Shown: positions 3,742 to 11,261 of the stretch, in pieces | Layout of the letters: each line of letters starts with the position of its first letter | Numbering within the stretch: position 1 is the first letter of the stretch | Source: a virus | Taxonomy: Duplodnaviria; Heunggongvirae; Uroviricota; Caudoviricetes | Reading direction: 5' to 3' (one strand) | Virus record (IMG/VR): IMGVR_UViG_2609459852_000009 | Length of the DNA: 14,095 nucleotides | Program-made: the position numbers and the translations under genes | The notes under the pieces: generated by a model | Database searches by the model: none | The model's input: the letters and a program-made list of their open reading frames with translations, nothing else | Told to the model about the DNA's origin: nothing

Positions 3742-4005
3742 TTATTCTTCTGCAAAAGCTGAAAAGCCTGCTTTTATTCCGATCTCTTTCAGTGCCTGTA
3801 ATGAAGTGACAAACTCACCTTCGCGCAAGATAAATCCGTCTGTCACTCGACCATCCACAAAATTAATTAACGCAGCCCCATTCTTTCGCAAACACATAAT
3901 GCGGTAATGACTAACAAGATTTCCATTTTCAACGCACACAGCATAGAGGCCATCTTCACAAAAATTTTTACGCAGTTCTTCGATGTTCATCATCATGTTC
4001 ATCAT
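3742..4005 (-). CDS. Hypothetical small protein with Met-rich N-terminus
   Basis: 87-aa ORF starting MMNMMMN; GGAAGGA Shine-Dalgarno about 7 nt upstream of the first ATG. Confidence 0.6.
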   Translation of the reverse strand: MMNMMMNIEELRKNFCEDGLYAVCVENGNLVSHYRIMCLRKNGAALINFVDGRVTDGFILREGEFVTSLQALKEIGIKAGFSAFAEE

Positions 4006-4120
4006 CAGAATCCTTCCGGATAATTAGCTCTCCCCTTTAAGGGACCATCCCTCTTCTCCCTGCGCGCTACTTAAGTATTTTTGATTCTATTCCGGCACCG
4101 TCCAGAACTTCAAACGCGTT

Positions 4121-4152
4121 GAAAATAAAAACAAAAACCCGCCGAAGCGGGT
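4121..4152 (-). terminator. Rho-independent terminator at the 3' end of the hok transcript
   Basis: On the minus strand: stem ACCCGC / GCGGGT with TTCG loop, followed by TTTTTGTTTTTATTTT. Confidence 0.7.
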
Positions 4153-4221
4153 TAAGTGCGGGTGCGTTGAGGATGCCTGCCACATCAGAGGTGGCGAGGG
4201 ATTTCTCCCTCGCCGGGTCTC

Positions 4222-4377
4222 TTACTCCTCAGGTTCGTAAGCTGTGAAGACAGCGACCTCCGTCTGGCCGGTTCGGATTCGTACCTCGCAAAGGTCTTTC
4301 CTCGTTACCAGTGCCGTCACTATGACGGTTAAACAGATGACGATCAGGGCGATTAACATCGCCTTTTGCTGCTTCAT
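4222..4377 (-). CDS. hokD: Hok-family type I toxin (HokD/RelF-like membrane peptide)
   Basis: Internal ATG at 4375-4377 with AAGGAG upstream gives MKQQKAMLIALIVICLTVIVTALVTRKDLCEVRIRTGQTEVAVFTAYEPEE, which I recognise as Hok family. The 70-aa track ORF is an in-frame upstream extension. Confidence 0.85.
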   Translation of the reverse strand: MKQQKAMLIALIVICLTVIVTALVTRKDLCEVRIRTGQTEVAVFTAYEPEE

Positions 4378-4555
4378 AGCCTGCTTCTCCTTGCCTTTCG
4401 GCACGTAAGAGGCTAACCTACATGTGTCTAGCATGAAATTGGCCTCAGATTAATGTTAAGCGTCTTGCAGGACGCGTAATGTTAACTGGGGCTTTTCTCT
4501 ATCTGCCGTTGGTGTTCATGCCCGAGGCAGATAGCCTCAAGCACCCGCAGCCATT
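4378..4555 (-). promoter_or_regulatory. hok mRNA 5' leader with conserved stem-loop (possible mok/sok regulatory region)
   Basis: Minus-strand GCTTGAGGCTATCTGCCTC (plus 4524-4542) forms a GAGGC/GCCTC hairpin and resembles the conserved 5' element of hok mRNAs as I recall them. Exact sok and mok boundaries are not resolved. Confidence 0.45.
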
Positions 4556-4842
4556 CTACTTAACTACCGTTACCTCGCCAATGTGAAATCAGTCAGAAAG
4601 GCGATCCATAAGAACAATAGCAAGACAATAAATCGCCATTACAGCCGTAATAGCCAGCGCACATTTGAGAACCAGCACCACAACCTCCTGTATTGGACGT
4701 ACACCAGTCCTGATGAATATGAGGCTGTCTCGTCAGTGATTCAATACAACTATTGGGTATAGTTTCTCTGATTTTTTCTGTGGAAATGGGGCTCAACCAC
4801 TAGTCATTTAATACGCAAAGTCCGACACAAGCTAACCTTCTA

Positions 4843-4866
4843 GTCCGCTTTGAGCGAGGAGCGGAC
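4843..4866. repeat. Hairpin GTCCGCT-N10-AGCGGAC at the left edge of the AT-rich island
   Basis: 7-bp perfect stem with a 10-nt loop; same architecture as the hairpin at 7332-7355; the stem contains the GTCCGCT motif found in the IS21-family termini. Confidence 0.5.
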
Positions 4867-5186
4867 CTTGTGTAAAAATCCCCATACCGGTTGATCGCGC
4901 TGAATGTTAGGTTCATAAACGACACAGGGTACATCGTAATGCTGCTCTATTGCTTCGTAAGTGATTCCCAATCGCTGCATCACTCGCTGAGAAGGAGTTC
5001 GACAACAGCCACTAAATAGTTGTGCATAGAGAACGACTGGAAAAGGCCGTAGGAACTTACAAATCTCAATTCACGGTAGAGTATGATATGGGTATTCAAT
5101 ATAAATACAGCCCTCAAAGGTTTAAATATGAACGGAAGTGTTAAAAACAATCTATCGTCAAAAAAGTACAAGCTAAAAGAAAAATT

Positions 5187-5474
5187 TTGAATTTGAATCG
5201 CGAGCTTTCTAATGGAAAGATCACTCAGGCTGATTATTGTCTATACAAAAAACTGTTTGAAGACTACATTCAGGTATTAACATTTCAACACACAAGAATT
5301 TTTGTGGAAAAAGATTTAATAGAACTATCAAATCATCGAAGTGGAGTATTCATTACAACTCAGCATGATACATTAGTAAATAGACTTGACAAAATTGATT
5401 ATGAAATTGACAGATTAAAAAACTGTTTAAATAAAAAAATTATCGATTACACAAAATTCACATCCCTATATTAG
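5187..5474 (+). CDS. Questionable small ORF (95 aa), TTG start only
   Basis: No ATG in frame and no clear Shine-Dalgarno; AT-rich; convergent with the 484-aa gene. Confidence 0.25.
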   Translation: MNLNRELSNGKITQADYCLYKKLFEDYIQVLTFQHTRIFVEKDLIELSNHRSGVFITTQHDTLVNRLDKIDYEIDRLKNCLNKKIIDYTKFTSLY

Positions 5475-5565
5475 GATTTTCTAAGAGTACGACACCGTCA
5501 CATTTAAATATTATTTGTAGAGGTAAAATGACAGCCTGACGGCGGTATTTCATTGCGAAATGCTA

Positions 5566-5590
5566 TTTAAAAGACCGCATTGAGCGGTCT
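5566..5590. terminator. Hairpin between convergent ORFs, likely terminator for the 484-aa gene
   Basis: GACCGC-ATTGA-GCGGTC stem-loop at 5573-5589; on the minus strand it is followed by TTTTAAA. Confidence 0.5.
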
Positions 5591-5626
5591 TATGTATCTC
5601 ACAACATATTACAGAATGACTTTAAA

Positions 5627-7081
5627 CTATTGTTTTAATAACATTTCAAAATCCTCATTCCAGTGCGTGTTTTGTGAAATACGGGTATCAATTTCATCAA
5701 GCAGCATATCATGAGAAAGTATGCTTAAAGGGTCATTCCCATTTTTACCAAAACGCATCGTAGTTTCTGCTATTTCCCAATCTTCTGCGCTGATTGATGG
5801 CTGTATTGCATGGCAGTAGATAGCCTTCACATCCTTTTCATGACAGTCAAAATTATTGATGCTTTCTGCAATTTTACGAGCTCTTTCAATTTCGACAACT
5901 GGACCATGTAAAGTTTCATATGATATATGCACAATTGTAGGGGTATTATCTGGAACCTGTCGTACCGCTTTGCTTAAGTGCGTTTTAATATCTTTTGCTT
6001 TTTTATTAATCGATTCCTCTGCTATACATTCCCAACGAGCACAGTAACCAGAGTGTATTCCAGTGCAAAAAATGTTAAGTATATCAACACCGTCGTCCGG
6101 ACCTACTCGTACAAGTCCTTTTGGGGCACAAAGATGAGTGTAATTTTCGCTGCTGCTAAAACTTCCGGCCAACAACGAAACCATCTGTGGAGAGTTCCAT
6201 TTAACCATGTATTTATCAAAATGCTCATTGATATTTTTCATATCTATTCTATTAATCAGTATTATAATTTCATCATTTTCTATTCTCAGTGACTTTCTCG
6301 TCGAGATATTAGACTTTATTTCATTGAAGATTTTTGCTAAAATATATTCATCTGTATCTTTTACTTCAACCTTGAAAAGCACGTCTAAAAATATGTTTTG
6401 TCTAGACTGAGTTAGAATAGGTACTAAATTGAGCCATCTTTGCCTCCATTCTCGACGCTCATTTTCAGAATATTCAGTCACTTTAGATAAACGCTTACAT
6501 TCCACAAAAAAGCTTTCTTCACCTTTAGTAACTTTTAAATCAGGAGTTTTATTTAATGCTGTTTCTGGAATAAATTCTACTCTATAACCATTGCGCGCAT
6601 ACATAATCGCAACAACTAATTCAAACAATGTTGAATCAGGTTGATTTATTTTACCGTTAAGAAATTCCGAAAGTTTTTCATCAATCCCAACAATTTTTTT
6701 TGCAAGCTCAATATGTCTTCCAACAGCCGCAAAAAAGGGAAATACTCGGGCTGATTGCGCTAACTCGCTAACTAAAGGCCGTTCATGTAAGCATTCTACA
6801 AGAAAAAGATACCATGCAACCCAATCCTCATGAAATGCCACCCTATTTTTTGGCTCTTCCATACTCTTCATTGCTTGGTCAAAATTCTTATAGGTGTTAT
6901 CTTCCTGTTCTCTGAAGTACTTGACTACATTTTTTTTGCGAGTCTCCCAAGTATCCTTTTCCAGATAAGATAAAAACCAGTCCAATGCAATTTTCGTATG
7001 ATGATGCCAGGGACTGGTATCCGTTGCTGCAAAAATCTCTTGTAGTTCTTTTGAATATTCCAATGTCTGTGTGTTAGCCAT
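5627..7081 (-). CDS. 484-aa protein with central PD-(D/E)xK nuclease-like signature; candidate defence or toxin nuclease
   Basis: ATG at 7079-7081 with GAGG 5 nt upstream; downstream hairpin. Motif E154 (FELVVAIMY), P180-D181 (TPDLKV), E194-C-K196 (FFVECKRL) at nt 6494-6622. GC content visibly lower than flanks. No named family recognised. Confidence 0.85.
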   Translation of the reverse strand: MANTQTLEYSKELQEIFAATDTSPWHHHTKIALDWFLSYLEKDTWETRKKNVVKYFREQEDNTYKNFDQAMKSMEEPKNRVAFHEDWVAWYLFLVECLHERPLVSELAQSARVFPFFAAVGRHIELAKKIVGIDEKLSEFLNGKINQPDSTLFELVVAIMYARNGYRVEFIPETALNKTPDLKVTKGEESFFVECKRLSKVTEYSENERREWRQRWLNLVPILTQSRQNIFLDVLFKVEVKDTDEYILAKIFNEIKSNISTRKSLRIENDEIIILINRIDMKNINEHFDKYMVKWNSPQMVSLLAGSFSSSENYTHLCAPKGLVRVGPDDGVDILNIFCTGIHSGYCARWECIAEESINKKAKDIKTHLSKAVRQVPDNTPTIVHISYETLHGPVVEIERARKIAESINNFDCHEKDVKAIYCHAIQPSISAEDWEIAETTMRFGKNGNDPLSILSHDMLLDEIDTRISQNTHWNEDFEMLLKQ

Positions 7082-7331
7082 TTTGACCTCATCATTGTTA
7101 ATTTATGAGATTTTACAACTTATAATGCATCTTCCAGATCGAGCCTCCAAGTAAGAAATCAGGCTAAATCAGACAGATATGTAATATATCCCTAGTCAAT
7201 TAGGCAGTCCACCCATAAATCCTAACAGTACGAAAATGGTTGGAACGTTATCCTAGGTTACTGCTCATCGTTTCCTTATGACCTCAATATATAAATATCC
7301 CAGCTCTTGCGGTTCGATTGTATGATTGACA

Positions 7332-11203: not shown

Positions 11204-11261
11204 TTTCTGGTGACGTTTGGCGGTATCAGTTTTACTCCGTGACTGCTCTGCCGCCGTTTTT
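11204..11261 (+). ncRNA. dicF: DicF small regulatory RNA (ftsZ-targeting sRNA) with terminator
   Basis: TTTCTGGTGACGTTTGGCGGTATCAGTTTTACTCCGTGACTGCTCTGCCGCC followed by GTTTTT matches DicF as I remember it; terminal GGCGG...CCGCC hairpin plus U-run; located just upstream of dicB. Confidence 0.8.

Follow-up and report, generated by a model that had tools for sequence, protein, structure and literature searches.

The window, by which we mean the whole 14,095-nucleotide stretch of DNA analysed here, carries on its minus strand a hok gene with its own promoter, leader and terminator. The elements of this transcription unit are as follows:

4222–4377, minus strand: hok coding sequence, HokD allele, 51 codons for a product of 51 aa (Pfam, PHROG, identity to K-12)
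4387–4392, minus strand: hok Shine–Dalgarno sequence, AAGGAG
4553–4581, minus strand: predicted hok promoter (−35 TTGGCG at 4576–4581, 17-nt spacer, −10 TAGAAT at 4553–4558)
4121–4546, minus strand: full-length hok mRNA of about 420 nt, with the 5′ end put at 4546, where position 1 of the Rfam model aligns
4126–4153, minus strand: intrinsic terminator of the hok mRNA, a stem at 4136–4153 and then a T run (terminator scan)
4236–4239, minus strand: Tyr47 codon TAC followed by G (UACG), a TadA A-to-I editing motif read from the sequence

The product is a small hydrophobic Hok/Gef peptide of the expected size of about 50 aa; it matches Pfam HOK_GEF (PF01848) at 82.9 bits against a cut-off of 22 (E = 1.2e-23) as well as PHROG 251, and all 51 of its residues are identical to those of K-12 HokD. 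The first-pass annotation had described a hok ORF with an AAGGAG Shine–Dalgarno sequence, a 5′ hairpin element at 4524–4542 and a 3′ terminator at 4121–4152, and all three were recovered: the ORF and its ribosome-binding site lie at the positions listed, the hairpin element belongs to the tac/metastable hairpin with which the mRNA begins, inside the Rfam match described below, and the terminator has a G+C-rich stem of 7 bp with five G–C pairs, followed by TTTGTTTTTA. The promoter has 9 of 12 consensus matches in a consensus scan, and its end is separated by 7 nt from a conserved GGG 5′ end at 4546, a spacing between −10 and GGG that is kept at hok loci of other genera.

Rfam family RF01794 matches 4372–4546 on the minus strand over the full length of the model (115.3 bits, gathering score 59, E = 3.5e-26). 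This family bears the name "sok", yet it models the strand of the hok mRNA leader, and the match in the window is on the hok strand. A weak Rfam match of 4132–4213 to isrK (25.7 bits against a gathering score of 50) was rejected, as nothing is aligned beyond two hairpins of a generic kind, namely the 3′ hairpin and that of the terminator. At the UACG motif, the hokD mRNA of K-12 is reported to be edited from A to I by TadA at 6% (PMC12214031).

For comparison, a scan with one genome per species gave 53 related hok loci, and the window locus was aligned with 34 related loci whose leader could be recognised, making a set of 35 loci from Escherichia, Shigella, Kluyvera, Citrobacter, Pseudocitrobacter, Pantoea and Photorhabdus. 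The first-pass annotation could not place mok or sok and suggested an alignment to characterised hok/sok loci; through mokC/sokC of K-12 and mokW/sokW of phage 933W, both were placed:

4222–4434, minus strand: mok ORF, 70 codons with an ATG start, in the hok frame and sharing its stop codon with hok (ORF list)
4443–4446, minus strand: mok Shine–Dalgarno sequence GAGG, invariant in the 35 loci
4391–4419, plus strand: putative sok promoter (−35 TTGCCT at 4391–4396, 17-nt spacer, −10 TAACCT at 4414–4419), read from the sequence
4426–4502, plus strand: candidate Sok antisense RNA of about 71–77 nt, by homology to the annotated sokC and sokW

The mok frame thus overlaps hok from upstream with a Shine–Dalgarno sequence of its own, the GAGG lying 7 nt upstream of the ORF, and its coupling to hok translation is predicted. 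The layout matches the annotated mokC (K-12) and mokW (933W), both of which end at the hok stop codon. Among the aligned loci, the ATG start is present in 34 of 35; the ORF runs in the hok frame for 68–70 codons to the common stop in 24/35, out of the hok frame for 55–69 codons across the hok start in 8/35, and ends after 19 codons in 2/35. This variation in frame fits a need for translation across the hok start and not for the Mok protein itself.

The antisense sok gene, with a promoter and a terminator, overlaps the mok start at the level of the sequence. Its −10 hexamer ends seven bases before 4426, and both hexamers and their spacing are conserved in the 35 loci. TAACCT is a poor match to the sigma-70 consensus, and the promoter falls below the threshold of a generic promoter scan. 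The region 4389–4418 is identical at 30 of 30 positions to the published hokW–sokW oligonucleotide YO-597, which includes the sokW −10. We place the Sok 5′ end at 4426 because the sokC and sokW annotations, from two independent homologues, transfer to the same base, while the 3′ end falls at 4496 (from sokW) or 4502 (from sokC). The predicted Sok fold comprises a single-stranded 5′ tail, a long terminator hairpin and a U run (−30.5 kcal/mol, z = −5.7).

Folding of the hok mRNA, which the first-pass annotation had put forward as a check of the leader, assigned the remaining regulatory elements, all folds being predictions of a thermodynamic model:

4535–4546, minus strand: tac (translational activator element), GGGUGCUUGAGG, at the mRNA 5′ end, positions 1–12
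4518–4546, minus strand: metastable 5′ hairpin of the nascent transcript (fold of mRNA positions 1–50)
4488–4497, minus strand: ucb (upstream complementary box, the anti-SD of mok), from the folds
4449–4486, minus strand: Sok target hairpin in the hok mRNA, from the folds, the hokC alignment and compensatory stem changes
4409–4413, minus strand: dcb (downstream complementary box), GCCUC, predicted to pair with the mok SD in the truncated fold
4193–4214, minus strand: 3′ hairpin, from the folds and conserved in the 35 loci
4160–4172, minus strand: fbi (fold-back inhibition element), CCUCAACGCACCC, at mRNA positions 375–387, predicted to pair with tac

In the fold of the first 50 nt, tac pairs locally with 4518–4528. 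In the full-length fold (426 nt; MFE −170.6 kcal/mol, z = −8.08), tac and fbi form a long-range helix of 12 bp with one bulge in both the MFE and the centroid structures, and the mok SD is closed by pairing with ucb; the duplex between the 5′ end and the 3′ UTR was equalled or exceeded by 8 of 2000 shuffled 3′ UTRs. When fbi is left out (positions 1–362), the fold opens, with tac pairing to ucb, the mok SD to dcb and the Sok target hairpin set free, and this is the pairing of the RF01794 consensus structure. The predicted folds therefore correspond to the three conformations that the model of plasmid R1 describes (PMC9841398), and by analogy with R1 the hairpin at 4193–4214, which is suited to halting exonucleolytic trimming, would form the end of the processed (truncated) mRNA and make it stable (PMC9841398).

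These helices are also supported by covariation. In the set of 35 loci, which includes clusters of close relatives, the closed structure has 87.5% of its cells paired compared to 38–48% with slid partners, and 12 pairs are changed on both sides, with the observed value reached by 1 of 500 shuffles. The open structure is 82.8% paired in the same 35 loci with 14 pairs changed on both sides, which none of 500 shuffles reached; across both structures the slid controls stay at 35–50%. The tac/fbi pairing, whose conservation in alignments the first-pass annotation had set as a test, thus covaries as well as forming its 12 bp: at tac position 4 the pair is U–A in 22/35 loci and C–G in 11/35, a compensatory change, and further compensatory changes occur at tac positions 11 and 12. 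The proximal 6 bp are paired in nearly all 35 loci, the tac/ucb stem is 99.6% paired and the mok SD/dcb pairs are invariant.

An apparent loss of distal tac/fbi pairing in the Photorhabdus group was traced to a one-base bulge that shifts the alignment register; a register-free duplex calculation keeps the pairing there and finds the 12-bp helix in 35/35 loci, at −17 to −24 kcal/mol. When the tac/fbi energies of each locus with its own partner were compared with those of crossed partners, a clear separation was seen for the Photorhabdus/Pantoea group only, and among the Escherichia-type loci, whose tac is identical, this comparison is uninformative. Taken together, covariation across genera supports the tac/fbi, ucb/SD, tac/ucb and SD/dcb helices as inferred from the aligned sequences.

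Over 11.5 kb, identity between the window and the E. coli L725 chromosome is 99.95%; in L725 the locus is annotated as "hokD" only and lies inside a Qin-like lambdoid prophage. The order of genes in L725 is dicB, the repressor/Cro genes, a YdaT-family gene, a replication-region gene, DUF977, a 484-aa hypothetical protein, hokD, rem, a 92-aa ORF, ydfU and the Q antiterminator, and the DicF RNA lies at 11205–11256 of the window. The locus sits between the replication genes and rem–ydfU–Q of a Qin-like lambdoid prophage. The AT-rich island that the first-pass annotation had named as a neighbour is seen at about 4900–7200, where the GC content is 31–37%.

To estimate prevalence, 5426 complete E. 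coli genomes were searched, a genome being counted if it held at least 80% of the query. The 521-nt locus (window 4100–4620) was found in 3842/5426 genomes, the 209-nt leader alone in 4115/5426, a count that includes paralogous copies of the subfamily in other prophages, and the relE–hokD junction of K-12 in 1167/5426. The phage record mEp460_ev081 carries the locus as well (99.6% identity), as do other lambdoid phages, and published surveys report hok to be enriched in prophages (10.1101/2025.08.07.668861). It is the complete form that is common in E. coli, and a prophage hok/mok/sok locus is ordinary, very common and already known; the first-pass annotation had understated both how common the complete form is in E. 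coli and how much was known of it. On its own the finding carries little weight, as this is a textbook module to which RefSeq gives the label hokD across thousands of genomes, and experiments have already characterised a phage copy with 94% identity. Its modest value lies in evolution, through the comparison with K-12 hokD given below, and in annotation: among the RefSeq records listed none annotates the leader, and mok and sok are likewise unannotated in the E. coli genome records inspected.

From the elements identified, we conclude that 4121–4581 is very probably a complete hok/mok/sok type I toxin–antitoxin module of the HokD allele, with the architecture and mechanism of the R1 type. This agrees with the free-standing module that had been proposed at first reading, since the promoter, leader, mok and sok are all present in the sequence. 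The mechanism is modelled on plasmid R1, where the mRNA passes through three states (PMC9841398), and all the sequence elements that it requires were found in the window. A stable mRNA of about 420 nt would be made from the hok promoter, and in the nascent transcript the 5′ tac would be kept in a local hairpin. In the finished transcript, tac would pair with fbi in the 3′ UTR and ucb would mask the mok Shine–Dalgarno sequence, so that ribosomes and Sok are both shut out. Slow 3′ trimming would then remove fbi, allowing tac to pair with ucb and the mok SD with dcb in an accessible hairpin, and translation of mok would drive the coupled translation of hok. Sok, a short, unstable and presumably constitutive antisense RNA from the plus strand (4426 to about 4500), would bind the processed mRNA across the mok start, blocking translation and triggering cleavage of the duplex by RNase III. 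Should Sok synthesis stop, for instance when the element is lost or the prophage is induced, the hok mRNA in store would be translated and the 51-aa Hok peptide would damage the inner membrane. The module may serve to maintain the prophage, to assist lysis as hokW does, or to exclude other phages. HokD, to which the product encoded here is identical, was the positive control for toxicity in an overexpression assay described in a preprint (bioRxiv 10.1101/2025.08.07.668861).

A module that is complete may still be physiologically silent in the lysogen, neither killing after loss nor responding to transcription arrest, and be carried as phage baggage. The complete sequences of hokA (E. coli C), hokB (K-12) and hokC (ECOR24) were reported to show no post-segregational killing or rifampicin activation (summarised in 10.1101/2025.08.07.668861), and therefore completeness of the sequence is no guarantee of activity; the sok and hok promoters of the window are also only moderate matches to the consensus. 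We nevertheless consider silence unlikely, given that all the regulatory elements are intact and covary, that 99.6% identity is kept in mEp460_ev081, and that the 94%-identical hokW–sokW was shown to be active and to increase the release of Sp5 phage about two-fold (PMC8621323).

The relation of this locus to hokD (relF) of K-12 was examined by BLAST and pairwise alignment. The first-pass annotation had stated that hokD lies downstream of relBE in K-12, which is correct, the order in Qin being relB–relE–hokD–rem–ydfU, and had seen no RelE or RelB ORF upstream of hok here; in agreement, relB and relE are without a significant tblastn match anywhere in the window, and the ORFs upstream of hok have no Pfam match. 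The arrangement is thus not that of the K-12 operon, in which relBE adjoins a hok that lacks its leader, as a complete leader is present. Homology between the window and K-12 spans ydfU, rem, the hok terminator, fbi and the hok coding sequence and stops at 4391, inside the hok Shine–Dalgarno sequence, beyond which the 3′ end of relE in K-12 faces the hok leader in the window. Both loci encode an identical Hok protein and are followed by rem and ydfU, and they are near-identical in coding sequence, 3′ hairpin, fbi and terminator, whereas K-12 lacks the hok promoter, tac, ucb, the mok start, the sok promoter and sok, and has relE–relB–ydfV–flxA in place of the leader. Since the break falls at the hok Shine–Dalgarno sequence, K-12 hokD has kept an fbi without its tac partner and has lost sok and the mok start. 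Judged by sequence, the relBE–hokD of K-12 is a derived and truncated form in which everything upstream of the hok Shine–Dalgarno sequence was replaced. This is consistent with the reports that K-12 hokD lost its activity through a rearrangement of the genome in which parts of the canonical system were removed (PMC12214031) and that relF/hokD is co-transcribed with relBE (PMC3598666), and the losses, followed base by base, explain both the orphan fbi and the dependence of K-12 hokD on the relBE promoter.

The order of events could in principle be the reverse, with the complete form being secondary and a relBE–hokD prophage having regained its leader by recombination with another hok locus. Templates for such recombination would be at hand, as genomes carry several hok loci of the subfamily, in up to 9 places, and Kluyvera likewise has relE–hok fusions, there with a different Hok allele. 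A partnerless fbi and 3′ hairpin in K-12 are, however, the signature of truncation, complete leaders are common to several genera, and the leader type occurs in 4115 genomes (paralogous copies included) compared to 1167 with the fusion, which leaves a regained leader very unlikely. There is hardly any probability, finally, that hok depends on read-through for all its expression, being the final gene on a longer transcript, as in relBEF, with the leader an untranslated spacer: the co-transcription in K-12 (PMC3598666) and an unannotated 29-codon ORF directly upstream on the same strand would favour it, but the promoter lies at a fixed distance from a conserved 5′ end, the covarying pairing with fbi requires tac to be the physical 5′ end, and the longer operon allowed for at first reading is contradicted by upstream DNA that varies by strain and often carries genes on the opposite strand. 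The reading of 4121–4581 as a module transcribed from its own promoter is the one we retain.

Upstream of the hok promoter, about 300 nt (approximately 4560–4866) travel with the locus in about 1700 genomes. This block contains the 29-codon ORF (4589–4678, minus strand), which is hydrophobic and unannotated and is preceded by an AGGAGG Shine–Dalgarno sequence; the ORF is open in five alleles, and its codon-position signal is weak. The block may encode a 29-aa membrane peptide that is co-inherited with hok and that could be a second small toxin or a modulator. The short Cys/Gly-rich ORF with a TTG start that had been listed as a neighbour of hok does exist (67 aa, 4593–4796), but we judge it to be spurious: it has no Pfam or PHROG match, it overlaps the better-supported 29-codon ORF in another frame, and in related strains a 1-nt indel lies inside it. 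The 484-aa neighbour belongs to a widespread family without a Pfam domain and carries a putative PD-(D/E)xK-like motif, read by eye from the sequence. When Hok, the 29-aa ORF and the 484-aa neighbour were scanned with PADLOC, the sole match was to a GajB fragment and was not significant (E = 0.0024).

Synteny breaks to the left of a small hairpin at about 4840–4866, with cargo that differs by strain. This break suggests a cargo hot spot, into which relBE–ydfV–flxA would also fit. We put forward tentatively that hok and the block of about 300 nt form the fixed right border of a cargo/defence hot spot in Qin/mEp460-like prophages; it is likewise possible, though doubtful, that relBE–ydfV–flxA of K-12 is cargo whose insertion overshot into the hok leader. 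If true, a type I toxin would have exchanged regulation by an antisense RNA for regulation by a type II operon.

The closest characterised relative is hokW–sokW of the Stx2 phage 933W and the Sakai prophage Sp5, a working type I toxin–antitoxin system (PMC8621323). Over 4160–4546 the window is identical to the hokW mRNA of phage 933W at 364 of 387 positions (94%), Hok and HokW share 47 of 51 residues, and the published hokW–sokW oligonucleotides match the window at 50/50 positions in the 5′ leader and 24/25 in fbi. The 933W record annotates mokW, hokW and sokW, and the two loci have in common the gene order, an in-frame mok of 70 codons, a hok of 51 codons, a Sok 5′ end at the equivalent base and a lambdoid prophage setting. 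They differ in the C-terminus of Hok, which is VDYESEK in HokW and TAYEPEE in the window, and in position, hokW lying near attR in 933W and the window copy between the replication genes and Q. In the Sok region, six of seven differences fall within 4428–4441, the Sok 5′ tail and mok start, which is the part where target recognition starts; we infer from this clustering that it lies where divergence of recognition between co-resident loci would be expected. Takada et al., working on the Sp5 copy, found that HokW is toxic and is neutralised by sokW expressed from its own promoter, and that a mutation of the sokW −10, at the place homologous to the sok −10 of the window, silences sokW and releases toxicity (PMC8621323). 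Mitomycin C causes sokW to be depleted and HokW to be induced in a way that depends on RecA, and deletion of hokW–sokW halves the release of Sp5 phage, the locus thus raising release about two-fold (PMC8621323).

The hokC/mokC/sokC locus (gef) of K-12 belongs to the same Rfam family (RF01794, 118 bits) and also has an in-frame mok, and its sokC maps to 4426–4502. Its Hok is about 82% identical to that of the window, its Sok target hairpin is 18 nt shorter, and it lacks fbi because IS186 cuts off the 3′ end.

The hok/sok (parB) locus of plasmid R1 is distant in sequence: blastn from the window gives only short pieces of plasmid hok at 77–82% identity. An R1-type plasmid locus, whose encoded Hok is identical to what we take to be the R1 Hok sequence, matches RF01794 at 87 bits, and tac/fbi forms in its predicted fold. 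HokW and R1 Hok are reported to be 44% identical (PMC8621323). The R1 system is plasmid-borne with proven post-segregational killing, whereas the window copy is prophage-borne; both have tac, ucb, the mok SD, dcb, fbi and an antisense Sok.

A conserved block upstream of hok (~4560-4866) is inherited together with the toxin gene in ~1700 of the 5426 complete E. coli genomes searched, and also in the phages mEp460 and HannyBb. It contains a small ORF, listed here with the other features considered:

4084-4113, (-) strand: promoter-like site immediately past the hok terminator, with the layout TTGAAG, 18 nt, TAGAAT
4589-4678, (-) strand: unannotated 29-codon ORF with a GTG start and AGGAGG 7 nt upstream
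5627-7081, (-) strand: 484-aa ORF, part of the AT-rich island, where GC is 31-37%
11205-11256, (+) strand: DicF sRNA, a full-length Rfam match (72.5 bits)

The stop codon of the 29-codon ORF lies 8 nt upstream of the hok -35, and its product would be a hydrophobic peptide, MLVLKCALAITAVMAIYCLAIVLMDRLSD, with no match to any family. The frame is open in all five alleles seen, and the coding signal is weak, with 13 variable sites distributed over third (6), second (4), and first (3) codon positions.

Synteny is lost at a small hairpin (GTCCGCT...AGCGGAC, ~4840-4866). The interval that separates the hok block from the DUF977 gene (~4840-7200 in the window) holds cargo that varies by strain, as comparison with loci L057-L063 shows.

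Cargo carried in this interval
Window: 484-aa ORF
Other strains: RelA/SpoT-domain protein; DUF262 protein; MFS transporter; two hypotheticals
Phage mEp460: 450-aa hypothetical
K-12 and E2865: relBE-ydfV-flxA

Such variation suggests a hot spot for cargo or defence genes in these prophages. The AT-rich island is rare, being found in only 11 of the 5426 genomes. Its 484-aa ORF matches PHROG 37220 (function unknown), with no match in Pfam, PADLOC, or PDB sequences, and has homologues ranging from Gammaproteobacteria to Bacteroidota, one of which is labelled a restriction endonuclease by one source. Judged by eye, its residues PDLKV...FVECKR resemble a PD-(D/E)xK nuclease motif.

The DicF sRNA confirms the Qin-like prophage context. 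The promoter-like site at 4084-4113 is positioned to drive rem (3742-4005) and the genes after it.

The Rfam family RF01794, named 'sok antitoxin', matches the hok mRNA strand (window 4372-4546, (-)), and the match stops at the hok start codon. What RF01794 models is the hok leader; therefore, automated annotation based on this family would put 'sok' on the wrong strand.

Fusion of relE to hok is not peculiar to K-12, as it is present in both Kluyvera sp. CHPC 1.2972 (L027) and E. coli ECMA0423 (L043). The Kluyvera locus has the K-12 type of fusion with a different Hok allele, and its relE–hok junction is ~3 nt shorter, which removes the hok Shine–Dalgarno sequence, while the hok of ECMA0423 is frameshifted.

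Finally, we compared the Sok region with sokW of the Stx2 phage 933W. The Sok hairpin is nearly identical in the two, whereas six of the seven differences fall in the Sok 5′ single-stranded tail and mok start (4428-4441), a pattern consistent with recognition specificity diverging between co-resident hok/sok loci.
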